The notes beneath the pieces were generated by a model that did no database searches, was not told the origin of the DNA, and worked only from the letters and a program-made list of their open reading frames with translations. From assembly GCA_045600145.1 (NCBI GenBank), contig JAZRXI010000008.1, positions 433 through 64,432 of the forward strand: 64,000 bases of DNA. Reading direction: 5' to 3'. Below are positions 163 to 42,010 of this stretch, piece after piece. This DNA is from Clostridia bacterium (GTDB lineage: Bacteria; Bacillota; Clostridia; Christensenellales; QALW01). A program made the position numbers and the translations under genes. Numbering within the stretch: the stretch's first letter is position 1; every line of letters begins with the position of its first letter.

Positions 163-873
163 ATGTTACTGTACATAATTCGGCACGGCGATCCGATATA
201 CGATCCCGATTCGCTGACAAAGCTCGGCGAGCTTCAGGCGGCGGCACTTGCAAAGCGTCTTGCCGTATACGGGCTTGATGAGATCTATGCTTCGCCGCTC
301 AAACGCGCACAGCAGACGGCACAGCCTACCTGCGATATACTCAAAAAAGAGTTTTCGGTTGAAGAGTGGACAAGCGAAAGTCTTGCATGGCAGGATTTTT
401 GCACAAGAAATGAAGAATCGAACGGATGGGTATTTTACAAGCGAAAAGCGCGCATGCGTTCTCAAGAGGTCAGCTCACTCGGGGCAGAGTGGTACAAGGC
501 ATCTGTTTTTGATGATACCTTTGCCGAACGCGGCGCAAAACGCATTCTTGATGCATCGGACGAATTTCTTTCACGCATGGGGTATGACCATGACCGCGAA
601 AACTGTTGCTATAAAGCACGCGAACACAGTGATAAGCGCGTTGCGGTATTTTGTCATCAGGGCTTCGGCATAACATGGCTCGGCACTTTGCTTGATATAC
701 CGCTTCCCGTTTTTTGGACGACTTTTGATTATACGCATACAGGAATGACAGTTGTGAAATTTCAGCCCGATGCGGACGGCAATACTGTTCCGACAGTGCT
801 GACGCTTTCGAATGATTCGCATTTGTTCCGTGAAGGACTTCCGCTGAGATACAATAACAGTATAGAATTTTGA
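163..873 (+). CDS. histidine phosphatase family protein (phosphoglycerate mutase-like)
   Basis: 236-aa ORF; N-terminal RHG motif (LYIIRHGDP), second His in FCHQGFG; GGAGGAG RBS just upstream. Confidence 0.8.
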   Translation: MLLYIIRHGDPIYDPDSLTKLGELQAAALAKRLAVYGLDEIYASPLKRAQQTAQPTCDILKKEFSVEEWTSESLAWQDFCTRNEESNGWVFYKRKARMRSQEVSSLGAEWYKASVFDDTFAERGAKRILDASDEFLSRMGYDHDRENCCYKAREHSDKRVAVFCHQGFGITWLGTLLDIPLPVFWTTFDYTHTGMTVVKFQPDADGNTVPTVLTLSNDSHLFREGLPLRYNNSIEF

Positions 874-884
874 TTCGTTTCGCT

Positions 885-1033
885 GGGACTCCGTTTCCGT
901 GGGGGGGCTTCGTCCAAAAAACTGCCCGCTTTTTGAAAAAAGCAGGGCAAAAAAATTTTATGACTTTTTGAAAAATTCTCCCGCTGTAAGTAAGACGGGA
1001 GAATTTTTCATACCAAAGTGTGAGCAGAAAACA
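885..1033 (+). repeat. 3'-UTR-associated modular repeat, copy R1 (ATTCTCCCG-hairpin subfamily)
   Basis: About 80% identical by eye over ~85 nt to 23577-23733; same module order as the other copies; starts 12 nt after the stop codon. Confidence 0.6.
975..1008 (+). terminator. intrinsic terminator (part of R1)
   Basis: ATTCTCCCG-N12-CGGGAGAAT 9-bp stem followed by TTTT. Confidence 0.7.
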
Positions 1034-2438: not shown

Positions 2439-2555
2439 AAAAAACACAGTGCCTGCATTGCTATTATACTTTGTGAGAAGCGCAATAAAAGTTTTGGCGC
2501 ATTTTTATCAAAAGCGCGAAAGGGGACAAGGGGCACAAAGTTCCCTGATGTGCGA
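2439..2555 (-). repeat. 3'-UTR-associated modular repeat, copy R2
   Basis: Minus-sense: GGGAACTTTGTGCCCC.., GCGCTTTTGATAAAAATGCGC, core AAAACTTTTATTGCGC (plus 2480-2495), ..AGGCACTGTG+T6; abuts the stop of 2556..4454. Confidence 0.6.
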
Positions 2556-4454
2556 TCACATCAGCGCATTCAACCGCTTATCGCCGTAAATCAACGATTC
2601 GGTTTCGTCGATAAGCTGTCGGATGCCTATTTTTTTATCACCGCGATACCAGTTTTCAAATATTCCTTTTTCAAGCACCTTGCGTTCCTCAAGATCGGTG
2701 CGCAGGAACGTTACCGCTTTTTTTAGATATTGCCTGTCGCCGGTATTGCAATACCGGCAGCATTCACGGCACCATGAAGAGAACAGTATCATATGGCGTA
2801 TCTGCCGTATCATTATATCAAAATATCCGTCGCACTCAAGCGCCTGCGCCTTTTTAAGCAGACGCTCGAATTTTTCGATGCTGTCAGTCAGCAGTCCGAC
2901 CCAATGATCCGGCAAACGTCTGTCAAGCGCGTCCAGACCGATGTATTTGATACTGCCGTCGGAAGCCGAAAAATAATTGAACTCATATTCGCCGTGGCGG
3001 AACGTGAAATACTGCTTATAGCTGTCAAGCCGCTCTATCGGCACATTGACGAACGAAGCAAAGTATTCCTTCATTATTTCGGCGGTCTGCACGTTGCCGA
3101 AGTAACGCGAGCATATCGTTTCATAAAAGCTGTCAAGGTCAAAGCCGTAAAAATCCTTTGTAAGTGCGGCGTTTGCCTCGTCAGAAAGAATGAAATCGCG
3201 CACATTGGAAGTATTGAGTATGCTGTATTCGGTATCCCCGGCTTCGACCGAAAGCTTATAGTTGTACGCCATCTTGCGCCAATCGGTGGCTTGCGCAAGA
3301 TGACCGCCGTCGCCCCAATAACAGATGTGATAGTATATGCCGTATGTGCGATTTTTTTCGCGCGGGATATCGTAAAAATCTGCCGAAAGCATCTGTGTCG
3401 GTCCGACATCCGAAAAAACAAGCGTCGTCTTTTGCGGGAATTTGAGATAGCCCGCGTGATAAAGCGTTGCGCCCTCCATCCACAGTGTGCTTGTGGAATA
3501 GAAATCCTTGCCGCACAGCTTTTCGACTATGCCGTACTGCACGGCTATGGCTTCGGAAATGACATTGCCCCAATACTCCATTCCGTGCGTGGCATCCTTT
3601 TCCCATACGGGTCGGTCTGCCTTGCCCCGCAGACCGAGCTGCCATATCACACTGTCCTTGTACTTTGCCCATTTTTCGGCATAGTACGTCCACACCTCTA
3701 TGGCGTCATCCTTGTTCTTTGAATATGAAAACTCGCTTGTCCGTCCGCGCTGTGCCATGTATGTATCGTAATACCAATGGCTTACGCCCATAGGCTCGAT
3801 ATGGTGCTGAGTGACGAACATTCCGCGCTTGACGCAGAACGCGACTATCTCTTCCTGACGCGGGTCGGCGATATCAAGCAGTGTCGCGGGGATTATCATA
3901 TTAAAATTCATTCTGAGCGCCGTTTCGACAACAAGTGCGATATCCTCTAAATTCGTTATATCCTGATAGAACGGGTAATCTTTTATTTCACGGGTATAGC
4001 CGTCATGCCAGCGGGTGAGCAGATCCTCGTCGTTTATGAACCAACCGCGGAATTTATATGTCATCGGTTTTGATTTATATGTACCGTCATTGATTGATTC
4101 ACAATGTTTTATTGTATTCTGCGTAAATGCTATTCCTGCGGGTACACCGAACAATTCGCTTACGCGGTATATTCCCCACATCGTGCCGCGTCTGTCGCTT
4201 CCCGCGATTATTATTTTCCCGTTTTTTACGGTAACAACATACTGCTCCCAATTTTCCGGGATTTCAAGATTCGTCTTTTTGTATTCACAAAGAAATTTTT
4301 CGTTTTCGATATTTCCCACTACTATATCGGCATCAAAAGAATTCTCTGCTATTTCCGTTTCACATCCGCACGAAGCAAGTATATCTTTTTTCAAATCCTT
4401 GCACGCAAGGAATATACATTCTTCTCCGTAATACGCTATTTTTTCAAAATTCAT
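2556..4454 (-). CDS. putative glycoside hydrolase (GH115-like), family assignment tentative
   Basis: 632-aa ORF; YKFRGWFINDEDLL-type motif recalled from GH115; AAGGAG RBS; start directly follows the stop of the upstream HTH gene (TAAATG). Confidence 0.45.
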   Translation of the reverse strand: MNFEKIAYYGEECIFLACKDLKKDILASCGCETEIAENSFDADIVVGNIENEKFLCEYKKTNLEIPENWEQYVVTVKNGKIIIAGSDRRGTMWGIYRVSELFGVPAGIAFTQNTIKHCESINDGTYKSKPMTYKFRGWFINDEDLLTRWHDGYTREIKDYPFYQDITNLEDIALVVETALRMNFNMIIPATLLDIADPRQEEIVAFCVKRGMFVTQHHIEPMGVSHWYYDTYMAQRGRTSEFSYSKNKDDAIEVWTYYAEKWAKYKDSVIWQLGLRGKADRPVWEKDATHGMEYWGNVISEAIAVQYGIVEKLCGKDFYSTSTLWMEGATLYHAGYLKFPQKTTLVFSDVGPTQMLSADFYDIPREKNRTYGIYYHICYWGDGGHLAQATDWRKMAYNYKLSVEAGDTEYSILNTSNVRDFILSDEANAALTKDFYGFDLDSFYETICSRYFGNVQTAEIMKEYFASFVNVPIERLDSYKQYFTFRHGEYEFNYFSASDGSIKYIGLDALDRRLPDHWVGLLTDSIEKFERLLKKAQALECDGYFDIMIRQIRHMILFSSWCRECCRYCNTGDRQYLKKAVTFLRTDLEERKVLEKGIFENWYRGDKKIGIRQLIDETESLIYGDKRLNALM

Positions 4455-16836: not shown

Positions 16837-18363
16837 ATGAAAAAGAAGCTTGTTATTGACAGTGAAGACGATAAAGTATTTTTTCATATAGTTACGCTGA
16901 TAATTTGTCTAAGCATACTTGCAGCTGTGAGCATAGCTCTGTTTGTTGACTATTTGGTAAGAGCACGTGAGCAGGACGGAATTGCGGAAAGCATAAGCGA
17001 AGCGGAGCAATATAATGAAATCTATTTTTCGGGAAAAATACTTAACGGCGTTATGATTTCGGGATATGATGTCGGCGGCATGAGCGAAGAAGAAGCCAAA
17101 AACTATCTTGCCGGCTGTGTGGACTATAATATAGCGATCCAACAGCTTGTGCTTAAGTACGGTGAAGAAACGTGGGTACTCGGCAGAGACCGTTTTCCGT
17201 TGACGACGGATGTCGAACATGCTGTTTCAAAGGCACTCGGGATAGGGCGGAAGGGGACTGACGAGGAACGCAAGCAGGTATTTGAGAAACTCGACCGAGG
17301 AGAAAAAATAGATATTTCGGCGACGAAGATAAGTGACCCGACGGAGCTAGTCAAGGTGCTTTGCGAAATCAAGGAAAAAACGGATATCGAAAAGAAAAAT
17401 GCAGGCGTGACATTTAAGTACGACGGCGCACCCATGTATACTTATACCGATGAGGTGATAGGCTCAAGCCTTGACGTCAATAAAGCCTACAGCGACATAT
17501 GCGCTTTGCTTGTAAACGATACTCCGATGCTTGAATATACACTTCGTCCCGATGTGGTTGAGCCTGAAATCAAGCGAAGCGATATCGAACATAATTATTC
17601 GCTTGTGGGAAAGTATACGACATGGCTTTCGGCGTCATCTGCTGCGGGAAGAATACAGAATATTACTACGGCGTTGCTCAGCCTTGATGAACGTGTATGG
17701 CTGCCGGGTGAAACGTTTTCATTCAATCAGTGGGTCGGAGCGCGTTCTGAGGAAAAGGGTTACGGGCTCGGAGTGTTCATAAATGAACAGCAACAGTATG
17801 ACCAAACCGTCGGCGGCGGGATATGTCAGGTTTCGACCACGATATACAACTGCGCACTCGTGTGCGGTGCGAATATGCAGGGGCGCAACGCTCCGATAGA
17901 GATAATTGAACGCCGTCCGCACACATGGCCGTCGGAATATATAGACAAAGGACTTGATGCCACTGTAAGCTGGCCGAGCACTGACCTCAAAATGTTCAAT
18001 AACAGTAAAACGCCATATTTTATACATACTTATATCACCCGTTCCGGCGGCAGGATATATGTAAACGTTGAATTTTACGGTACACTGCTGCCGAACGGCG
18101 CAAGCGTGAAGATCGAAACCGAGATAATCGAGGAAGTACCTGCAACGACGGAAACAATAATCGACAGCGAAAATAAATACGGACTTGCCGCAGGACAACA
18201 AAAGGTCGAAAACGGACGCAACGGCTATACCGTAAATGTGTATCAGATATGGTCGGAGCCCGGCAAAGACAGCGTGAAATCACTTATAACCGTTTCCAAA
18301 TACGGAATGATACCGACAAAGGTATACGTCAGTCTGCTCCCGGCGGAAACGGCGGCAGCGTAA
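16837..18363 (+). CDS. VanW family protein
   Basis: GGGICQVSTTIYNCAL VanW core; N-terminal TM; 508 aa. Confidence 0.8.
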   Translation: MKKKLVIDSEDDKVFFHIVTLIICLSILAAVSIALFVDYLVRAREQDGIAESISEAEQYNEIYFSGKILNGVMISGYDVGGMSEEEAKNYLAGCVDYNIAIQQLVLKYGEETWVLGRDRFPLTTDVEHAVSKALGIGRKGTDEERKQVFEKLDRGEKIDISATKISDPTELVKVLCEIKEKTDIEKKNAGVTFKYDGAPMYTYTDEVIGSSLDVNKAYSDICALLVNDTPMLEYTLRPDVVEPEIKRSDIEHNYSLVGKYTTWLSASSAAGRIQNITTALLSLDERVWLPGETFSFNQWVGARSEEKGYGLGVFINEQQQYDQTVGGGICQVSTTIYNCALVCGANMQGRNAPIEIIERRPHTWPSEYIDKGLDATVSWPSTDLKMFNNSKTPYFIHTYITRSGGRIYVNVEFYGTLLPNGASVKIETEIIEEVPATTETIIDSENKYGLAAGQQKVENGRNGYTVNVYQIWSEPGKDSVKSLITVSKYGMIPTKVYVSLLPAETAAA

Positions 18364-18379
18364 AGATATATGTTTTTGG

Positions 18380-18538
18380 TGGGACTTTGGAGTTGCGCTT
18401 AGTGGAAATGCTGTTCAGTGCCCCTTCTTGTAAGCTTTTTTGAACAAAAGCTTGACTAAAGACTTTTATTGCACTTTATGCAGAATAAAAAAGTACAGTG
18501 CCTTATGCTAAAATACAGCTCAGGCACTGTACTTTTTT
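18380..18538 (+). repeat. 3'-UTR-associated modular repeat, copy R3
   Basis: GGGACTTTGGAG.., AGCTTTTTTGAACAAAAGCT (18433-18452), AAAGACTTTTATTGCAC, GTACAGTGCCT-N18-AGGCACTGTAC+T6 (18493-18538). Confidence 0.65.
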
Positions 18539-18552
18539 ATTGAAAAAAGTAC

Positions 18553-18581
18553 TTTACAAATAAAATGATGTATGTTATTAT
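18553..18581 (+). promoter_or_regulatory. putative gyrB promoter
   Basis: TTTACA (18553-18558), 17 nt, TATTAT (18576-18581). Confidence 0.4.
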
Positions 18582-18646
18582 ATATAAAGTTATTATATGT
18601 AATAAAGGGTGTATAGGGCTTACACGGTTCTGCATCCAAAAAGTGA

Positions 18647-20578
<1,932 letters not shown>

Positions 20579-23247: not shown

Positions 23248-23571
23248 ATGGTCAAAAAAGTTTTGCTTATAGCCGGTGCGATTTTTCTCGGCTTGAACTT
23301 CGGTATGATCTCCGGCTTTATGCCGATACTTCTGATCGTGGGTTTTGTACTGTTCCAGGACGGTTTGAAATCTACCGTGCTTGCCGGCTACAGCACGCTT
23401 ACGGCGATAGTTGCCGGCATACTTACATACGTTCATATGTACCGTAAAAAGCGTGAACATGAATCACCGTCACCGTATGTTATGGCGCTTGCATGGAGCT
23501 TTGTTGCCGGTGCGGTCATCGCCGCTGTAGCGTTGTTTATTTATTCGGGAAACGAAATATACAGAATATGA
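23248..23571 (+). CDS. small membrane protein (3-4 TM), unknown function
   Basis: GGAGGAG RBS, MVKKVLLIAGAIFLGLNFGMISGF... Confidence 0.6.
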   Translation: MVKKVLLIAGAIFLGLNFGMISGFMPILLIVGFVLFQDGLKSTVLAGYSTLTAIVAGILTYVHMYRKKREHESPSPYVMALAWSFVAGAVIAAVALFIYSGNEIYRI

Positions 23572-23576
23572 GTTTG

Positions 23577-23733
23577 TTGGACTCCATCCACACTCATATG
23601 CAGGGGATACAGTCCTTTGACTCCACCCGCTTTCTTGAAAAAACGGGACAAAAAACTTTCGTGACTTTATGAAAAATTCTTCCACCGTAAGTAGGGCGGG
23701 AGAATTTTTTTGCAAAAGTATGTGAAAGAAACA
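23577..23733 (+). repeat. 3'-UTR-associated modular repeat, copy R4 (ATTCTCCCG-hairpin subfamily)
   Basis: Aligns with R1: CCCGCTTTCTTGAAAAAACGGG, AAAAAACTTTCGTGAC, ATTCTTCCACC-N7-GGGCGGGAGAAT+T7. Confidence 0.6.
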
Positions 23734-23821
23734 TACGGAGCTGAAAAAATGAGTTGCACGCATTTTTTGCAAACTTGTTGTAGTGCAATTGCTTTGTTTT
23801 CTGTCGCTTAATTTAGGGAAA

Positions 23822-23926
23822 CGCCGCGAAGCGCAATAAAAAGTTTTATCCCGCTTTTACAAAAGCGGGCGAGTGGTGCAGGGGAACGGAGTTCCCGCGA
23901 AAAGGGATACGGGGAGTCCCCGCAAA
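23822..23926 (-). repeat. 3'-UTR-associated modular repeat, copy R5
   Basis: Minus-sense: GGGGACTCCCC, GGGAACTCCGTTCCC, CCCGCTTTTGTAAAAGCGGG (23850-23869), AAAACTTTTTATTGCGC; abuts the tadA stop. Confidence 0.65.
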
Positions 23927-24397
23927 TCAGTGGTTTAGAGCCAAGCCTCTTTTTGACTTAAAAAAATCCGAAAGTATTGAGGCGCACTCATTTTGCATAA
24001 CGCCACCGAGTACTTCGGCACGGTGATTGAAACGCTTATCGCTGCAAAGGCGGTAGAGTGTGGTACAACATCCTGCCTTTTCGTCGTATGCACCGAACAC
24101 GACCCTGTCAACACGCGAGTTCACTATCACACCCGCGCACATGGGACACGGTTCAAGCGTCACATACAGAGTGCAACCCGATAGTCTCCACGAATGAAGC
24201 TGATGTGCCGCTCTGCGCATGGCAAGAAGCTCTGCATGCGATGTCGGGTCATTGTCATGCTCACGGCGGTTACAGCCGCGCGCAATGATTTCCCCTTCGT
24301 ATACGATAACGGCGCCTACGGGGACTTCACCTGCTTTTGCGGCGCATCTTGCCTGCATGAGCGCGCGTTCCATAAAATAATAATCGTCTTTAATCAT
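23927..24397 (-). CDS. tadA: tRNA adenosine(34) deaminase
   Basis: HAELLAMR and PCPMCAG zinc-binding motifs; 156 aa. Confidence 0.92.
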   Translation of the reverse strand: MIKDDYYFMERALMQARCAAKAGEVPVGAVIVYEGEIIARGCNRREHDNDPTSHAELLAMRRAAHQLHSWRLSGCTLYVTLEPCPMCAGVIVNSRVDRVVFGAYDEKAGCCTTLYRLCSDKRFNHRAEVLGGVMQNECASILSDFFKSKRGLALNH

Positions 24398-31418: not shown

Positions 31419-31534
31419 TAAAAATTATGCCGTCCGTGTATCGGGCGGCGTAAAGCGCAATAAAAACCATTTGCCGAATTTTTCGCGAGAATTGTTTGCG
31501 TGGAGGAATAGTTCCACGAGAAAGAAATGCGTAC
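31419..31534 (-). repeat. 3'-UTR-associated modular repeat, copy R6 (CAACAATTCTCGCGAAAA subfamily)
   Basis: Minus-sense: GTGGAACTATTCCTCCAC, CAAACAATTCTCGCGAAAAATT, GGTTTTTATTGCGC, hairpin GCCGCCCG-N5-CGGACGGC; abuts the stop of the GH32 remnant. Confidence 0.55.
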
Positions 31535-32221
31535 TCATGGCTTTTCGACAAGCGTGATCCTAACTTCTTCGCCGTGGTTGATGTATTCTTCTTTTATGTA
31601 TGCGTCAAGCACGGTGTCGTCGTCCGCGACGAATGAACGCACTTCTTTTATTGGATAGGCGGTGATTTTGGCGTCGTTGACTGTAAGCTCAAGCGGGAGC
31701 GAAAGGCAGCTTATACATTTTTCCTTCGGTCTGTATTCCCAACCGGGAATCCATGAAATCAGAATGTTTCTGCCGTCGGGAGCATGGAATATCTGACCGG
31801 CGTATTCGTCGGGACCTTTTTGAAAATGTGAGATTGTTTTTGCTGAAAATGTTTTGCCATCGAAATCTCAATATATGACTTCAAAATAGTGATCTGCGTT
31901 TTTCGGACAGACAGACACTGACAGAATATATCCGTTTTCGCACTTGACGAATGAAGGACATTCGCAGTAAAGACAGTTGCTGTATTCTCTTTCGGCGTCC
32001 GGATCTATTGCAATTTGTAATTCTTCGAAAGAACAAAAATCTTTTGTTACGGCGTGTCCCCAGTGCATAGGCGTGTTATTCGGATATTCGGAATCCGGCA
32101 AATGCTGATATAAAATATGATACTGTCCGCCGAAGTAGGAAAGTCCGTTGGGATCGTTGATCCAGCCTTTCTTTGGATGAAAATGAATTTACAGATCGGA
32201 GTTTGAAAGAAAACCGTTCAT
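31535..32221 (-). pseudogene. GH32 (sucrose-6-P hydrolase / beta-fructofuranosidase) remnant
   Basis: Single frame of 229 codons: HFHPKKGWINDPNG.., HWGHA, YCECPSF, DFDGKTF.., LPLELTV. In-frame TAA (32189-32191) and TGA (31868-31870). The ~130-aa RDP-containing core and most of the C-terminal domain are missing. Confidence 0.8.
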
Positions 32222-32233
32222 CGTGGACCAATC

Positions 32234-33469
32234 TCACAGCGCATTTGTATCGCGGTTCTTTTTTGCTATTGCGAAAAGCACAGTTGCCGCCGCAGGTGCA
32301 AGAAAAGCAAAAAGCATCCCGAGCTTCATGCCGAGTTGTTCGGGGGTAATGGCAAATGTGTTTGCGAGCGGCTCAAACAGCGGACTTGCGATAACGCTGT
32401 CGGTAACATAGCCGACTATTTGGGGATATACCGTTGCGCCCAAGTCGCCGCCGACAGCCATGAATGCGAACAGCGTTACGCCTGCGTCCGGCACACGGTC
32501 AGTGACGGCAATAAGGCTTCCCGGCCAAAGCATGGCAACGAAAAAGCCTGTCATCGCACATGCGGCGATGCTCAATACAGGCAATGATGAAAATACCGTA
32601 ATAAAATAGCAAACAGCCGTTCCGAGCGCACCGTAGAGCAGTACATTGTCGATTTTTTTGCCGAAATGTGCATACAGTGTGCGCCCTACGCCGAGCATAA
32701 GCGCAAATGTCGCAAGTCCGAGAACATCGCAAACTATCTTGTCGATGCCGAAAGCTGTTTCAAGATAACTTGAGCCCCACTGACACATCGTTATTTCAGA
32801 TGCGCCCGAGAAAAAAATGCATGCGATGTAAAGTATCGCTGTTTTGTTGCGCATCACGCCGCCGTTGCCGGTAACACTTTTCTGCGAATCCATATCGGGA
32901 ATCGGAGACAAAAGCATCAGTATGAACGCTGTGAGCGGAAGAAGCGCAAGAATAAGCGCAAGCACCTGCCAATTTTCCGTTCCGAAAAATGTTATGTATG
33001 CCGAGGAAAGCAGTATTACGCCAAGCAAGCCCCAAGCATAACTTGAGTGCATGCGGCTTAAGGTCTTTTCACTGTTTTTGGACGGAATATAAGTTACAAC
33101 GGGACTTGTAAGCACCTCGGCAAGCCCGCCTCCGGCAGAGAAGATGACCGTTCCTATCGCAAGACCGATGTAAGGATTTGCGGGGAAGAGTGTCGGTGCA
33201 AATGCGTAAAAGATTATTCCTGCCATAATGATCGCCGGCGTCAGCTTTACGGAAATTTTAAGATCAAGCTTGCTTGAAAAGAAAGAGTAAATCAAATCCA
33301 TCATAAGCTGCGGGGCAAAATTCAGTACTACCAAAAAACCGAGCAGTGTATACGAAATACCGTATATACTGTGAAATGTCGTGAAGAAAATCGGTGAGAA
33401 TATCGAAGCAATGGATGTTGATGCCGTCGTTACAAAGCAGGCAGCTTTTGTCATGTTGTAGTTTTTCAT
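32234..33469 (-). CDS. MFS transporter
   Basis: 411 aa, about 12 hydrophobic segments; substrate unknown (sits upstream of the GH32 remnant). Confidence 0.75.
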   Translation of the reverse strand: MKNYNMTKAACFVTTASTSIASIFSPIFFTTFHSIYGISYTLLGFLVVLNFAPQLMMDLIYSFFSSKLDLKISVKLTPAIIMAGIIFYAFAPTLFPANPYIGLAIGTVIFSAGGGLAEVLTSPVVTYIPSKNSEKTLSRMHSSYAWGLLGVILLSSAYITFFGTENWQVLALILALLPLTAFILMLLSPIPDMDSQKSVTGNGGVMRNKTAILYIACIFFSGASEITMCQWGSSYLETAFGIDKIVCDVLGLATFALMLGVGRTLYAHFGKKIDNVLLYGALGTAVCYFITVFSSLPVLSIAACAMTGFFVAMLWPGSLIAVTDRVPDAGVTLFAFMAVGGDLGATVYPQIVGYVTDSVIASPLFEPLANTFAITPEQLGMKLGMLFAFLAPAAATVLFAIAKKNRDTNAL

Positions 33470-36837: not shown

Positions 36838-37935
36838 ATGATGAAAAAAGTTCTTGCGCTTCTTTTATGTGCGGCTACTGTTTTTGTTGCCGGATGTTCA
36901 GATAAAAACGGGCAGATTGCCGAAACCCCTATTGCTTCGAATCAACCGAAAGTGACGGGGTCTGTAAGTCCGGATGTTACCGATATAGATGTCACCGCTG
37001 AGCCCGACACAGAGGTAACGCCGTCAGACACTCCCACGGTATCATCAACGCCGAGAATCACCCCGGTGCCAACTCCCACACCGACGATACGCCCTGCTCA
37101 GACCGCAAGTATAGTACCCGCGGCACTGATTACGGTAGGATATACAACTCCGCTTTCACAACCTCCGGCAGGCTACGGTATGCCGTATTTCATCGAGGTG
37201 GATGTGACCAACCAATGCGTGAATATTTTCATAAAGGATGCCGCAACGGGAAGGTATGATATTTTACTCAACCGTTTCGTATGCTCGGGCGGAACAAGTA
37301 CTTATCCGACAAAAACAGGCAATTTCTTTATTCTCAGCGACAGCGCACAGAAGGCACGCAGGGGTCAGCTCACGAAGTATCAGCGTTATTATTTTCAAAA
37401 ATGGGAATCATATGCGTATTATATAACACGTTATTCCGATGAATATATGTTCCATTCTTTTACATTTAAGAAAAACGCCGCGGGTCAGCTTATTGCCAAA
37501 AATGATTATTACAATATGGGGAACCCGGGTTCGGCAGGATGCCTCAGAATGCTTATGGGCCATGCAAAGTGGATATATGAGAATATTGACGCGGGAACGT
37601 ATTGCTCCGTAACCAAAGGGCGCAAAACGGACAGCGATCTGCGTTCAACGCTGAAAAAGTATCTTCCGCCGCTCGGCTACGATATGACACCCTCGTGGAC
37701 GCCCGGGAATAACAGCACAGGGCTCACGATAGCGGATTATGTCACCAATCCGGAAACGATAGTGACCGCACCGCCCGCAACACCGACACCGGAGATCACA
37801 CCGTCGCCGACGCCCACACCTACGCCCACACCTACGGAAACGCCTACATATACTCCCGAGCCGACACATGAAGAGAGCGGCATGGAAGAAGAAACTCCGC
37901 TTCCGTCTTCGGAAGACGAAAAAACGAATGATTAA
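36838..37935 (+). CDS. L,D-transpeptidase (YkuD) lipoprotein with Pro/Thr-rich linkers
   Basis: Lipobox FVAGCS; catalytic HSF...GSAGCLRM. Confidence 0.8.
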   Translation: MMKKVLALLLCAATVFVAGCSDKNGQIAETPIASNQPKVTGSVSPDVTDIDVTAEPDTEVTPSDTPTVSSTPRITPVPTPTPTIRPAQTASIVPAALITVGYTTPLSQPPAGYGMPYFIEVDVTNQCVNIFIKDAATGRYDILLNRFVCSGGTSTYPTKTGNFFILSDSAQKARRGQLTKYQRYYFQKWESYAYYITRYSDEYMFHSFTFKKNAAGQLIAKNDYYNMGNPGSAGCLRMLMGHAKWIYENIDAGTYCSVTKGRKTDSDLRSTLKKYLPPLGYDMTPSWTPGNNSTGLTIADYVTNPETIVTAPPATPTPEITPSPTPTPTPTPTETPTYTPEPTHEESGMEEETPLPSSEDEKTND

Positions 37936-37944
37936 AGAATGATA

Positions 37945-38090
37945 GGGGAGATGTCGGAGCTTCGTTTCGTTGTGAATTGACCCTGCCACTCGCTTTTGTA
38001 AAAGCGCGCCAAAACTTTTATTGCGCTTTTCACAGAAAAAAATAATACAGTGCCTTATGCTAAAGTATAGTGTAGGCACTGTATTTTTTT
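37945..38090 (+). repeat. 3'-UTR-associated modular repeat, copy R7 (best exemplar)
   Basis: CGCTTTTGTAAAAGCG (37991-38006), AAAACTTTTATTGCGC (38011-38026), ATACAGTGCCT-N18-AGGCACTGTAT+T7 (38046-38090). Confidence 0.7.
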
Positions 38091-38261
38091 GGCTTTGTGT
38101 CATTGCACGAAGTGATGTGGCGATCCATACGAACAAAAGTTAGTTTATGCTGAACACGGATAGCCACGCATATTTCGCAGGCTTGCAATGAAATAATGAA
38201 GTTTTTTATAGCGCAATCATTTTATTTCCCGTTTTTCAAGGAGTGGGCAAATGGGGAAGGA

Positions 38262-38379
38262 GAGTTCGTTTACCGCGAAGTGTAATAAAAATCTTTTATC
38301 AAACTTTTCGCGAGAATTGTTGCAGGGACGGATCCCTAAGAAACCCAAATGATGGGGCTTCTTAGGGGGCGTACAGTTA
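38262..38379 (-). repeat. 3'-UTR-associated modular repeat, copy R8 (CAACAATTCTCGCGAAAA subfamily)
   Basis: Minus-sense: CCCTAAGAA-N16-TTCTTAGGG, AGGGATCCGTCCCT, CAACAATTCTCGCGAAAAGTT, GATTTTTATTACAC; abuts the ABC gene stop. Confidence 0.55.
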
Positions 38380-40275
38380 CTACTCCAATTCAAACGCTCC
38401 GGTATAAAGGCGGTAATACGTTCCTTTTGCCTGAATCAGTTCATCGTGTGTGCCGCGCTCAATTATCTTGCCGTGGTCAAGCACCATAATAACATTCGAG
38501 TTCATAACCGTAGAAAGGGGGTGCGCGATAACAAATACCGTTCTGCCTTCCATCAACTTATCCATGCCGCGCTGAACAATGGCTTCGGTGCGCGTATCTA
38601 TTGACGAGGTTGCTTCGTCAAGTATCATTACGGGCGGATTTGCAACCGCTGCGCGCGCGATCGCAAGTAGCTGGCGCTGTCCTTGCGAAATGTTCGCGCC
38701 GTTGTTTGAAAGCAATGTGTTGTAACCGTCCGGCAGACGCGATATGAAATCATCCGCGCCCGCGAGCTTCGCCGCCGCCACGCACTCCTCATCGGTGGCA
38801 TCAAGATTGCCGTAGCGGATATTCTCCATAACGGTATCAGTGAATAAATTCGTATCCTGAAGCACTATGCCGAGCGAACGTCGCAGGTCAGCTTTTTTTA
38901 TCTTGTTGATGTTTATTCCGTCGTAGCGTATTTTGCCGTCCTCAATATCGTAGAAGCGATTCAGCAGATTCGTTATCGTTGTCTTGCCTGCGCCCGTTGC
39001 GCCTACAAATGCGACCTTCTGTCCCGGCTGTGCAAATACTGAAACGTCGTGAAGCACCTGTTTGCCCTCAACATATGAGAAATCAACATTGAGAAGCTGA
39101 ACGTCGCCCTTTAACTGCGTATATGTAAGAGTGCCGTCGCTGTGCGGATGCTTCCATGCCCATTGTCCCGTACGCTTCGTCGCTTCCGAAATACTTCCGT
39201 CCGGCGCGATTTCGGCGTTTACAAGTGTTACATAGCCATCGTCGGCTTCGGGCTTTTGATCTATAAGGTCGAATATGCGTTCCGCGCCCGCCATAGCCAT
39301 GACTATTGAGTTTATCTGCTGTGAGACCTGATTTACATTGCCCGTGAATTGTTTTGTCATGTTAAGGAACGGTACTACGAGGCTTATGCTGAACGGCAAT
39401 CCGGAAATGCCGACATTCTTTGCGTTAGTGACAAGGAACAGACCGCCGGCCATGGCGATAAGCACATACAAAACGTTGCCGATGTTCATGATTATGGGCC
39501 CGAGTGTATTCGCGTATGCGTGCGCCTTATAGCTGACATCATAAAGGTCGTTGTTTATCTTATCGAAGTTTTCCTGGCACTCTTTTTCATGACAGAAAAC
39601 CTTTATGACCTTCTGCCCGTTCATCATTTCCTGGATAAAGCCCTCGGTAACACCCGTTACTTTTTGTTGACGCACGAAAAATTTCGCACTGCCGCCGCCT
39701 ATTTTCTTTGAAACAAATATCATTGCGGCAACGCCGACAAGTACTACAAGTGTCATCCATACGCTGTACCACAGCATTATGCACAAAACGACCGTCACGA
39801 TGATACACGATTGAAGCAGTGCCGGCAGTGATTGTGATATGAGCTGACGGAGCGTGTCGATATCGTTGGTGTAATAGCTCATGATGTCGCCATGTTTGTT
39901 GGTGTCGAAAAATCTTATCGGCAGATCCTGCATGCCGCTGAACATCGAACGACGGAGCTTGTCAAGAAAGCCCTGTGTCATATACGCCATGAGCTGTGTA
40001 TGCGTGGTTATGGCGATTATCGAAAGCAGATACAGCCCTGCAAGTCCTCCGACGAGCGGATATATGTATTTGCTTGCCGAAGCCCAATCGCGCGACTGAT
40101 ACCATTCCTGAATGACAGCGATTATCCTTTGCTGGAACAGCGCAGGTATCGACGAAACTACTGCCGCGAATATTATACACAGCGCTGTAAGCGGCACGAG
40201 AACGGGATAGCTCTTGTAAAGAAATTTCAGTATTCTGCCTATGTTTTTGATACTGCCTTTTTTCTTATTTTTCAT
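38380..40275 (-). CDS. ABC transporter permease/ATPase (type I exporter half)
   Basis: 6-TM domain plus GATGAGKTT Walker A, LSQGQRQ signature, ILDEATS Walker B; start at MKNKKKG overlaps the upstream partner. Confidence 0.9.
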   Translation of the reverse strand: MKNKKKGSIKNIGRILKFLYKSYPVLVPLTALCIIFAAVVSSIPALFQQRIIAVIQEWYQSRDWASASKYIYPLVGGLAGLYLLSIIAITTHTQLMAYMTQGFLDKLRRSMFSGMQDLPIRFFDTNKHGDIMSYYTNDIDTLRQLISQSLPALLQSCIIVTVVLCIMLWYSVWMTLVVLVGVAAMIFVSKKIGGGSAKFFVRQQKVTGVTEGFIQEMMNGQKVIKVFCHEKECQENFDKINNDLYDVSYKAHAYANTLGPIIMNIGNVLYVLIAMAGGLFLVTNAKNVGISGLPFSISLVVPFLNMTKQFTGNVNQVSQQINSIVMAMAGAERIFDLIDQKPEADDGYVTLVNAEIAPDGSISEATKRTGQWAWKHPHSDGTLTYTQLKGDVQLLNVDFSYVEGKQVLHDVSVFAQPGQKVAFVGATGAGKTTITNLLNRFYDIEDGKIRYDGININKIKKADLRRSLGIVLQDTNLFTDTVMENIRYGNLDATDEECVAAAKLAGADDFISRLPDGYNTLLSNNGANISQGQRQLLAIARAAVANPPVMILDEATSSIDTRTEAIVQRGMDKLMEGRTVFVIAHPLSTVMNSNVIMVLDHGKIIERGTHDELIQAKGTYYRLYTGAFELE

Positions 40276-42010
40276 TTGCGTCACCCCCGTTCGTCTGCTG
40301 TTCATATACCTCACGGTAGATGTTGCTTATCTGCATGAGCTCGTCATGATTTCCGACAGCAGTGACTTTGCCGTGTTCAAGCACTATTATCATGTCTGCA
40401 TCCTTGATCGAAGCGATACGCTGAGCGATTATCAGCTTTGTGGTCTCGGGAATGTACTCTCTGAATGCCGCACGGATGAGCGCATCGGTCTTTGTATCTA
40501 CTGCGCTCGTTGAATCATCGAGAATAAGTATTTTCGGATTTTTGAGCAATGCACGTGCTATACACAGACGCTGCTTCTGTCCGCCGGAAACGTTCGTGCC
40601 GCCCTGCTCAATCCTTGTATCGTATTTATCGGGGAAGCTCTGAACGAAATCATCCGCCTGCGCGAGCTTGCATGCGGCAATGATTTCTTCATCTGTGGCA
40701 TCGGGATTACCCCAAAGCAGATTTTCACGTATCGTTCCCGAAAACAACAGATTCTTCTGAAGCACCATGGCGACCGATGAACGCAATGTGTTCAGGTCGT
40801 AATCCTTGACATTCTTGCCACCTACAAGGATCTCGCCATCCGTAACGTCATAAAGTCGCGGTATGAGTTGTACGAGCGATGATTTGCTCGAGCCGATACC
40901 GCCGATGATGCCGACAGTCATACCGGATGCTATGTGCAAATCAATACCTTCAAGCGAATACTTGCGTGCTCCGCGTGTGTACTTGAAGCTTACGTTGTTG
41001 AAATCTATAGAGCCGTCTGCAACTTCGTGCACGGGATTTTCCGGATTCTTAAGTGACGGGGTCTCGTCAAGCACTTCGGAAATACGCTTGATCGATTCAG
41101 ATGACATTGTAAGCATGACATATATCATCGAAAGCATCATGAGCTGCATGAGTACCTGGAAGCCGTATGTAAGCATCGCCGACATTTCACCGATATCAAT
41201 AATCGTGCCACCGCTTGAAATGACCATTTTTGAGCCTATCAGCATAACGAATGCCATGTTGAAGTAAACGCAGAACTGCATTATGGGATTGTTCAGTGCA
41301 ACGATACGCTCGGCTCTCGTGAAATCCTTGCGGATGTTGTCTGATGCCGCACTGAATTTTTCTTTTTCGAACTCCTCTCGCGAGAAGCCCTTTACGACAC
41401 GCATCGCGCGCACGTTTTCCTCAATTGATTCGTTCAGCTTATCGTACTTTTTGAAAACACGTCTGAATGCGGGCATCGCGTACTTGGCAACTATGAGAAG
41501 CCCGAATGTCAGTATCGGGATTATTACGACGAATGTAAGCGCGAGCTTGCCGCCCATTATCATCGCCATTATGACAGAGAAAATGAGCATCAAGGGGGCG
41601 CGTACCGCTATTCGTATTATCATCATATACGACATTTGCACGTTGTTGATATCAGTGGTAAGACGTGTCACGAGCGATGACGATGAAAACTTATCTATGT
41701 TTTCAAAGGTGTACGTCTGTATTTTTGCAAAGATATCATGCCGCAAGTTTTTTGCAAAGCCCGCGGACGCCTTTGAGCATGTGAAGCCGGCTATGCCGCC
41801 GCAGCAGAGTGAAAGCAACGCCATGACCGTAAGCGTAAGTCCCGTCTTGATGATAGCGCTCATCTCAACGCCCGCTTTGATTCTGTCAACGAGGTTGCCC
41901 GTTATGAACGGGATAAACGCTTCGATAACGGCTTCGCAAACGATAAAAATGAGCGTAAGTATTGTAGGAGTTTTATATTCTCTTACACATTTGATAAACC
42001 GTTTGAACAT
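40265..42010 (-). CDS. ABC transporter permease/ATPase (type I exporter half)
   Basis: 6-TM domain plus GGIGSSKSS Walker A, VSGGQKQR signature, ILDDSTS Walker B; likely a heterodimer with 38380..40275. Confidence 0.9.
   Translation of the reverse strand: MFKRFIKCVREYKTPTILTLIFIVCEAVIEAFIPFITGNLVDRIKAGVEMSAIIKTGLTLTVMALLSLCCGGIAGFTCSKASAGFAKNLRHDIFAKIQTYTFENIDKFSSSSLVTRLTTDINNVQMSYMMIIRIAVRAPLMLIFSVIMAMIMGGKLALTFVVIIPILTFGLLIVAKYAMPAFRRVFKKYDKLNESIEENVRAMRVVKGFSREEFEKEKFSAASDNIRKDFTRAERIVALNNPIMQFCVYFNMAFVMLIGSKMVISSGGTIIDIGEMSAMLTYGFQVLMQLMMLSMIYVMLTMSSESIKRISEVLDETPSLKNPENPVHEVADGSIDFNNVSFKYTRGARKYSLEGIDLHIASGMTVGIIGGIGSSKSSLVQLIPRLYDVTDGEILVGGKNVKDYDLNTLRSSVAMVLQKNLLFSGTIRENLLWGNPDATDEEIIAACKLAQADDFVQSFPDKYDTRIEQGGTNVSGGQKQRLCIARALLKNPKILILDDSTSAVDTKTDALIRAAFREYIPETTKLIIAQRIASIKDADMIIVLEHGKVTAVGNHDELMQISNIYREVYEQQTNGGDANEK

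Follow-up and report, generated by a model that had tools for sequence, protein, structure and literature searches.

The 64,000-nucleotide stretch of DNA analyzed here (positions 433 to 64,432 of contig JAZRXI010000008.1, from an uncultured lineage of Clostridia; hereafter the window) carries eight copies of a repeat, numbered R1 to R8 along the stretch, each lying behind a different gene, and these genes are mutually unrelated. The family to which they belong, hereafter called L, is a lineage-specific, modular and hairpin-based non-coding repeat that sits at the 3' ends of genes with a gene-linked orientation; it is defined by a shared 5' part in which G+C-rich mini-hairpins are followed by an A/T-centred palindrome, abbreviated as hp2, and by a box, AAAACTTTTATTGCGCTTCGCG. 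We consider that the eight segments are best explained, with a probability of roughly 0.55, as copies of a lineage-specific mosaic repeat resembling the repetitive extragenic palindromes (REP) and bacterial interspersed mosaic elements (BIME), which would carry portable bidirectional terminators with it. In the literature that we searched on REP, on REP-associated tyrosine transposases (RAYT) and on intergenic repeats in Oscillospiraceae and Clostridia, there is no account of the L family, nor any earlier account of its fixed order of stop codon, mini-hairpins, core and terminator, of its repeated terminators or of its gene-linked polarity.

A profile hidden Markov model built from genome-wide copies and run with nhmmer matches L at 147 places in the 2.14-Mb assembly of 103 contigs, with E-values down to 1e-20, and in the window it recovers eight places and no others. 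These are the segments listed in an earlier note on this DNA, whose coordinates and module order are borne out by sequence and profile together, and the genome matches establish that the family proposed there is a real modular one. Each window copy starts 0-16 nt after a same-strand stop codon, as close as had been reported, and R5 and R8 do lack a dedicated terminal hairpin. The full module stands far above chance, unlike the box alone, for which the exact 16-mer has six matches in the window at no more than three mismatches versus 1.9 expected, a weak excess. The alternative modules that follow L at its 3' side, designated T1, T2, T3 and X, have 59, 26, 11 and 31 copies, respectively, in the 2.14 Mb, and all modules together make up about 1% of the genome and 8.3% of its non-coding DNA, according to gene positions from our own crude longest-ORF (open reading frame) caller. 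The assembly is fragmented at repeats, 16 of its 206 contig ends lying within 300 nt of a module, and the copy numbers of L are minima; because the assembly breaks at L, the true number must exceed the count. Several contigs have a terminus that falls within an L copy, for instance C69:4-83, C36:4-87 and C32:4-74. No known RNA family is matched: an Rfam scan of the window at gathering scores returned two tRNAs only, and permissive scans of the R7/R8 and R3 loci gave nothing other than far sub-threshold hairpin look-alikes. A BLAST comparison of R7, the copy flagged initially, with plasmid and phage collections found no match either.

Read with the upstream gene, a unit consists of mini-hairpins, a spacer, hp2, the box and a 3' module, in that order. 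The mini-hairpins are present in zero to five tandem copies of the same direction, typically GGGGAC-TCC/GCT-GTCCCC; at least 87 well-formed ones follow a format of a 5-8-bp stem closed by a 3-nt loop, and the stem is often lengthened by covarying outer pairs (TTT..AAA, GCG..CGC or CAC..GTG). The spacer, CCC(T)GC, leads to hp2, a near-perfect palindrome clamped by G+C pairs and with a 2-nt centre in which the TTT/AAA centre and the outer C-G pair are invariant and the three pairs between them covary freely. The stems quoted in the earlier note (CGC..GCG, AGC..GCT, CCCGC..GCGGG, and GTACAGTGCC vs ATACAGTGCC) are all present in the sequence, and the pattern generalizes to the whole genome. The box, with the consensus (G/A)CAAAACTTTTATTGCGCTTCGCG, passes at a fixed junction position into one of the four continuations, and its form varies with them, since copies with T2 carry the variant ..TTTTATGACTTT and those with T3 the variant ..TTTTACTGCATT. 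The last continuation, X, is a filler and not a terminator, and runs into a further palindrome, 'Z', which is also present elsewhere in the genome and constitutes a further repeat module of the mosaic. Departures from GCGCTTCGCGC in the box and the following hairpin, surveyed genome-wide (in the window, 18470-18480 and 38020-38035), are mostly changes of CpG to TpG or CpA (GCAC, GTGC, ACGC), a pattern that suggests deamination of methylated GCGC sites.

Other functions for these parts were considered and rejected. A promoter in the box (TTGCGC, 17 nt, TAATAC) would have a weak -10 hexamer and the subfamilies disagree, while a consensus scan calls none at the R3-R7 copies except for the conserved gyrB promoter downstream of R3. 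An antiterminator-like pairing of the 3' arm of hp2 with the box is at odds with a box that stays unchanged when the hp2 stem changes. Integron attC sites also lie 3' of genes in the orientation of the gene, but by inspection the L copies are not arrayed as cassettes and have no attC core.

The pairing of hp2 is maintained by compensatory change. In 64 distinct copies from at least 8 genomes, 98% of the alignment cells are paired and four of the eight pairs have changed on both sides, values taken from a covariance-model alignment that was fitted to the structure and is hence biased towards pairing; double-sided changes amount to 71 cells vs 25±4.6 in shuffles (none of 500 shuffles reaches 71), and the covariation score is 0.351 vs at most 0.09 for controls with slid partners. 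An independent analysis of hairpins copy by copy gives 91% vs 52% for shuffled arms. RNAalifold predicted no pairs on a plain MAFFT alignment of 89 copies, which is gappy, and the hairpin search per copy and the structure-fitted alignment took over from it. Because the middle pairs vary freely, it would be the hairpin rather than the duplex sequence that matters in hp2. The strand on which such structures are selected can be approached by counting mismatches within stems, for RNA of the sense strand tolerates G·U and not A·C. The ratio of G·U to A·C is 33:11 in T1, 8:5 in hp2 and 11:17 in the mini-hairpins. Selection at the RNA level, in the direction of the gene, is therefore visible for T1 and not for L, so that the selection on structure proposed in the earlier note is sustained for hp2 in so far as its double-sided changes keep the pairing, and at the RNA level only for T1.

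The modules T1-T3 are predicted to be intrinsic terminators. They fold with -18 to -29 kcal/mol, and their stem is preceded by an A-tract and followed by a U-tract; because of this combination, they qualify as terminators on both strands. In their G+C-rich stem, U-tract and upstream A-tract they are like ordinary Rho-independent terminators, and they occupy the same place as the plain terminators of relatives, but they differ in forming repeated families, with the copy numbers given above and a fixed junction to the L core, instead of being unique sequences. Their strong folds, U-tracts and position at gene ends, together with the mismatch bias of T1, suggest that they both look and evolve as terminators.

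The placement of L is linked to genes throughout the genome, even if less strictly than in the window. The earlier note held that copies are always 3' of a gene, which is true of the window; in the genome, the end of the box lies 40-160 nt beyond the 3' end of a same-strand ORF of 100 aa or more in 112 of the 147 copies (76%); random intergenic points reach 37% and a mirrored control 11 of 147. A genome-wide scan of the kind suggested in that note thus reveals a strong bias in strand and towards stop codons. Among gaps of at least 100 nt, counted strictly only where the gene on either side codes for 150 aa or more, L occupies 50% of the convergent, 13% of the tandem and 1.6% of the divergent ones. 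In convergent gaps the orientation is trivially that of a gene; the information lies in the order of parts, and L invariably follows the stop codon and precedes T. Tandem gaps are the only context with free orientation, and of the single copies there, 19 point in the direction of the genes and 6 in the opposite one. Opposed L copies face inward ('><') in 19 of 19 pairs, 18 of which have exactly one T between the two copies, and single copies outnumber pairs about 4 to 1. Exceptions to the polarity exist: six inward-facing pairs set one L beside the start of a gene, and two to five copies, according to the strictness of gene calling, lie in divergent gaps. In other lineages, for which the loci are short and the ORFs crude, the results are mixed, with a same-strand 5' neighbor in 3/3 (G112), 5/6 (G196) and 6/16 (G266) cases. 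Gene-end placement is thus a strong gene-linked tendency and not a law. A bias with the replication strand, of the IS200/IS605 type, was ruled out by the convergent single copies, which divide 9:12 when set against the local majority strand of genes and 12:15 against the sign of GC skew, two proxies of replication that agree with each other (r = 0.88).

The distribution of the family is patchy. Among 21 species of the genus, L is abundant in two only, namely this genome (at least 109 copies) and its sister species (G008, JAZRZN01; GyrB 97% identical), which has at least 51; three of the remaining species show a few weak matches and sixteen none. In an even sample of 301 genomes of the order, the 5' core of L is found in 7 genomes, or 4 of 150 genera, and each positive lineage has its own 3' continuation, with some copies in tandem arrays. 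The exact 22-nt box also occurs in other metagenome-assembled genomes (MAGs) of Oscillospiraceae/Eubacteriales, where the hp2 stems differ yet are again complementary. At one locus in another family of the order (L049, G112:C36:20392-20868), the L-like core is repeated head to tail in five to six units of 103 nt, situated directly behind an ordinary terminator. At the gene end behind the ORF that follows gyrA, relatives without L have an ordinary unique terminator.

Comparison with the sister species indicates how the units turn over. Most L copies occupy the same sites in the two genomes and have near-identical cores, with mini-hairpin arrays that differ, the mini-hairpin part being 57-70% identical at orthologous sites vs 92-98% in the flanks. 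All nine indels of at least 12 nt found over about 95 kb of sister loci are mini-hairpin units of 12-45 nt; several lie on the side of the stop codon, and target duplications are absent from all nine. A 235-nt block that also differs between the two genomes is bounded by the 5' tag of a REP. A larger difference is a 450-nt composite that is present in the sister and absent here, located exactly in a stop codon and flanked by an 8-bp direct repeat, AAAGCGTA; because its ends (GGTTCTTT...AAAGAACC) are unique sequence repeated nowhere in the genome, microhomology deletion is as likely an explanation as insertion. The best identity between L copies is about 91%, over 186 nt, and since no two copies exceed this value, the family appears to be old and not bursting.

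The genome contains genuine candidates for REP and for the enzymes associated with them. The gene RAYT-1 (contig C59:27686-28276) codes for a RAYT-like protein of the Y1/HUH type in which the motifs HLHLIL and SFYDHII occur; it has a single NCBIfam match, NF047646, 'REP-associated tyrosine transposase' (71 bits, the cut-off being 80), and a single PDB match, TnpA-REP of E. coli (4ER8). Its stop codon is directly followed by three copies of GTAGGGTGCGGCGTCCCCGACGCACCG, a palindrome with a GTAG tag that we call module Y; in the genome as a whole this module has 23 copies, and several are embedded in L mosaics. The reading frame of RAYT-1 holds two Y copies of its own in inverted orientation, one after the first beta-strand (..IVGCGVLDAPK..) and the other after the HUH motif (..RDSGASGTPHPT..). 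A second paralogue, RAYT-2, is truncated by the contig end (C23:13-282) and has at the equivalent position a different in-frame hairpin, GTAAGGGCGAACTGTGTTCGCCC (..SVRANCVRP..), of which only two GTAG-tagged relatives are found elsewhere in the genome. Some of the mini-hairpins of L start, on the opposite strand, with G-C-AGGGTGCGG, which except for the second base is the same 11-mer as that of Y, G(C/T)AGGGTGCGG. Homologues of RAYT are present in 4 of the 7 L-positive vs 23 of the 294 L-negative genomes, a count that includes incomplete MAGs and ignores phylogeny.

Among known systems the closest is the REPtron, the combination of REP/BIME and RAYT of E. coli, Pseudomonas and Stenotrophomonas (PMC3333891, PMC8266576, PMC3733652, PMC5581495). 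As in the REPtron, the extragenic DNA holds many copies of short G+C-rich palindromes, which combine with other motifs to form mosaics and often occur as inverted pairs, and the REPs of a single-copy RAYT gene, here module Y, lie behind that gene. The usual position of REPs is behind genes, in gaps whose ORFs are convergent or run the same way (PMC3733652), and L agrees with this in its placement downstream of genes and its rarity in divergent gaps. The format of its mini-hairpins is also close to that of the REP of S. maltophilia, which has an 8-bp stem and a 3-nt (GCT) loop (PMC8266576). Unlike those of the REPtron, the mini-hairpins of L have no GTAG tag and are away from the RAYT gene, and they are arrayed head to tail between the stop codon and a conserved core, hp2 plus box, that is not a REP; the unit brings its own repeated intrinsic terminator, its orientation is tied to the upstream gene, and the host belongs to an uncultured lineage of Clostridia. 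The statement in the earlier note that the family is not REP/BIME is thus correct by sequence and not in kind, given the unit-wise behavior of the mini-hairpins, the GTAG-tagged REPs within the mosaics and the RAYT-type transposases. We file L as working like a BIME mosaic and not as a proven member of the REPtron, because it lacks two defining features, the GTAG tag and the adjacency to RAYT. A survey of RAYT has one passing mention of group 1 in Clostridia (PMC5581495), and a survey of REP is without any mention of Firmicutes (PMC3733652).

The comparison extends, by description, to other small repeats of bacteria. L shares with the BOX elements of pneumococci a modular non-coding build with a variable number of a short unit, an intergenic location and strong folding, but the variable unit lies at the 5' end in L and in the middle in BOX. 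BOX elements, formed by boxA, a variable number of boxB and boxC, are a modular intergenic repeat of Gram-positive bacteria with strong predicted folding. To our knowledge they lack both a dedicated transposase and a terminator of their own, and their position is not consistently right behind stop codons. The Correia elements of Neisseria and other miniature inverted-repeat transposable elements (MITEs) are likewise small intergenic repeats with inverted-repeat structures able to act as terminators. Correia elements are bounded by terminal inverted repeats with defined ends and duplicate a TA target; in the L family, neither terminal inverted repeats nor target duplications were found family-wide, the latter among the few filled and empty site pairs available, and these are the features by which the earlier note would have recognized a MITE.

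On the reading that we favor, the mini-hairpins would be REP-like, each gained and lost independently, and the repeat units would propagate as DNA, in the form of single strands that fold into hairpins and possibly with RAYT enzymes as agents, persisting almost exclusively in the niche that separates the stop codon from the transcript end. T1-T3 would serve the host as intrinsic terminators that are portable and work in both directions, one T, set between two inward-facing L cores, being typically shared by a convergent gene pair, and L itself would probably form part of the 3' untranslated end of the mRNA, with no sign of being selected there as an RNA structure. Several observations weigh against this reading. 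Most mini-hairpins lack GTAG and have at best GCAG, on the opposite strand and in a subset, and no GTAG/CGTC tag was found in hp2; L does not lie beside either RAYT gene, the flanks of which hold REPs of the Y type; three of the seven L-positive genomes have no detectable RAYT, and the 23 RAYT-positive genomes of the other group have no L. The ceiling on identity between copies leaves no sign of recent bursts, the gain and loss of single units could be due to replication slippage or unequal recombination instead of transposition, and the gene-wise direction of single copies is left without an explanation at the DNA level, since the terminators are bidirectional.

Alternatively, L might be a functional cis-acting RNA element of the 3' untranslated region (3'-UTR), or give rise to small RNAs derived from it, with hairpins selected in the transcript because they block 3' exonucleases or bind a protein, for example, hence their sense placement between stop codon and terminator. 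The consistent order of stop codon, L and terminator, the gene-linked orientation with its independence of the replication proxy, the covariation of hp2 and the identity of the 22-nt box in several species all fit this idea, and REPs of E. coli are known to stabilize upstream mRNA (PMC3733652, PMC8266576). We nevertheless regard it as unlikely, since L stems have no excess of G·U over A·C, which T1 has, and a near-perfect palindrome with a 2-nt centre such as hp2 is unusual for an RNA hairpin. The restriction to 4 of 150 genera, the fast turnover of mini-hairpins at orthologous sites in comparison with their flanks, the position of inner pair members and some single copies at gene starts or in divergent gaps, and the lack of any Rfam match point in the same direction. 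By analogy, a role in the transcript would be compatible with the mosaic-repeat reading, since the REPs of E. coli also act in mRNA.

The polarity of L is its least explained feature. It could reflect selection, if only the niche from stop codon to terminator tolerates the element and L must precede T, or it could instead stem from an insertion step coupled to transcription. A bolder form of the latter idea, which we hold to be quite unlikely, would see the family as self-spreading 'gene-end cassettes': hairpins would be added singly behind stop codons by a transcription-coupled mechanism acting on single-strand DNA, the terminator would be carried along, and host transcription ends would thereby be created or replaced. 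The likeliest agent would be a RAYT/HUH enzyme working on the strand exposed where RNA polymerase ends, and the family would actively make or replace the ends of host transcripts instead of being a mere settler in neutral DNA. Such a view is allowed by the orientation, which follows the gene and not replication, by the new mini-hairpins on the stop-codon side and by the plain terminators found in relatives.

We find it highly doubtful that hp2 and the box are bound, as duplex DNA, by a nucleoid-associated or regulatory protein, the repeats thereby organizing the chromosome at gene ends. The near-perfect palindrome and the high conservation of the box across species would suit such a site, and BIMEs of E. 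coli bind IHF and gyrase (PMC3333891), yet the three middle pairs of hp2 vary with complementarity kept, which argues for an extruded hairpin, no candidate protein is at hand and the family is absent from most relatives. Very improbable, finally, is the notion that inward-facing L pairs are full MITEs with terminal inverted repeats of about 90 nt, moved by a DDE transposase with target-site duplication, and that single copies are half-elements, for the uniform facing of the 19 pairs and the 450-nt composite with its 8-bp repeat in a stop codon are offset by the unique ends of that piece and its equally good explanation by microhomology deletion, by the excess of singles over pairs, by mini-hairpin indels without duplication, by copies that are old and diverged, by the lack of a conserved terminal motif between the stop codon and the first mini-hairpin and by the absence of plasmid or phage matches; the ends resembling terminal inverted repeats and the 8-bp repeat, seen at one indel, did not generalize.

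Repeats of the REP/BIME kind have been well studied in Proteobacteria and hardly described in gut Clostridia. The present family combines hairpins of the REP type with a conserved core and a terminator that is itself repeated, in a single fixed order oriented by the gene, and it offers a test case for RAYT enzymes moving more than canonical GTAG repeats. If the terminators work, a repeat family would supply a sizeable share of the transcription ends of an organism, and would give a concrete example of how operon boundaries are shaped by selfish or domesticated DNA. On the practical side, L breaks the assembly at some contig ends and yields spurious small ORFs, and recognizing it improves the annotation of abundant uncultured gut bacteria.

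Table 1. Modules of the eight L copies in the window and the genes that precede them (positions are those of the window).
Feature	Position	Strand	Evidence
R1, upstream gene: histidine-phosphatase	163-873		Pfam
R1, L core: mini-hairpins, hp2, box variant ..TTTTATGACTTT	879..961	+	nhmmer match, sequence
R1, T2 terminator module AAAAATTCTCCCGC..GCGGGAGAATTTTT	956..1026	+	T2 profile 66 bits; fold -23.5 kcal/mol
R2, decayed T1: 3' arm GCAGGCACTGTG and T-run only	2439..2466	-	read from sequence
R2, L core, after GH115 gene 2556-4454(-)	2467..2549	-	nhmmer match, Pfam
R3, L core, after VanW-like gene 16837-18363, ahead of gyrB promoter	18405..18487	+	nhmmer match, Pfam
R3, T1 terminator with A-tract and U-tract	18487..18536	+	T1 profile; fold -28.6 kcal/mol
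R4, L core, after 108-aa ORF downstream of gyrA	23570..23659	+	nhmmer match
R4, T2 terminator, sole terminator between convergent pair R4/R5	23658..23725	+	profile
R5, L core with two mini-hairpins, after tadA-like deaminase gene 23927-24397(-), no own terminator	23821..23923	-	profile
R6, small private hairpin GCCGCCC..GGACGGC, then T-run	31419..31445	-	read from sequence
R6, L core, hp2 variant CAAACAATTCTCGCGAAAA.TTCG, after decayed ORF with stop 31535-31537	31446..31535	-	profile
R7, upstream gene: YkuD transpeptidase	36838-37935		Pfam
R7, L core: decayed mini-hairpin, hp2 CGCTTTTGTAAAAGCG, box AAAACTTTTATTGCGC	37954..38037	+	profile, sequence
R7, T1 terminator, sole one between R7 and R8	38038..38088	+	folds both ways (-23.7, -19.2 kcal/mol)
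Inverted pair of 'Z' palindromes (GTCATTGCnnG..CGTGGCnATCC) between R7 and R8	38097..38191	.	read from sequence
Module X, filler in place of terminator after R8	38154..38231	-	X profile 58.8 bits
R8, L core, after ABC transporter (exporter) gene 38380-40314(-)	38272..38356	-	profile, Pfam

The coordinates of the window copies are collected in table 1. R7 is the best match to the covariance model of hp2 and box, with 66.9 bits. The ORF upstream of R6 is a 35-aa remnant of a decayed gene, at least 100 codons long from stop to stop. The region to which it belongs, between R6 and the transporter gene at 32234-33469, holds fragmented ORFs (window 31535-32101, minus strand), including a 77-aa piece (..MHWGHAVTKDF..) that resembles a glycoside-hydrolase motif, and from its sequence it looks like a decayed gene. 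Downstream of R3, the promoter and leader of gyrB (window 18540-18661; TTTACAAA.., TATTATATAT.., AAAGGGTG..) are kept in eight species of the genus, and the gene upstream of this promoter, together with its 3' end, is different in each of the eight.

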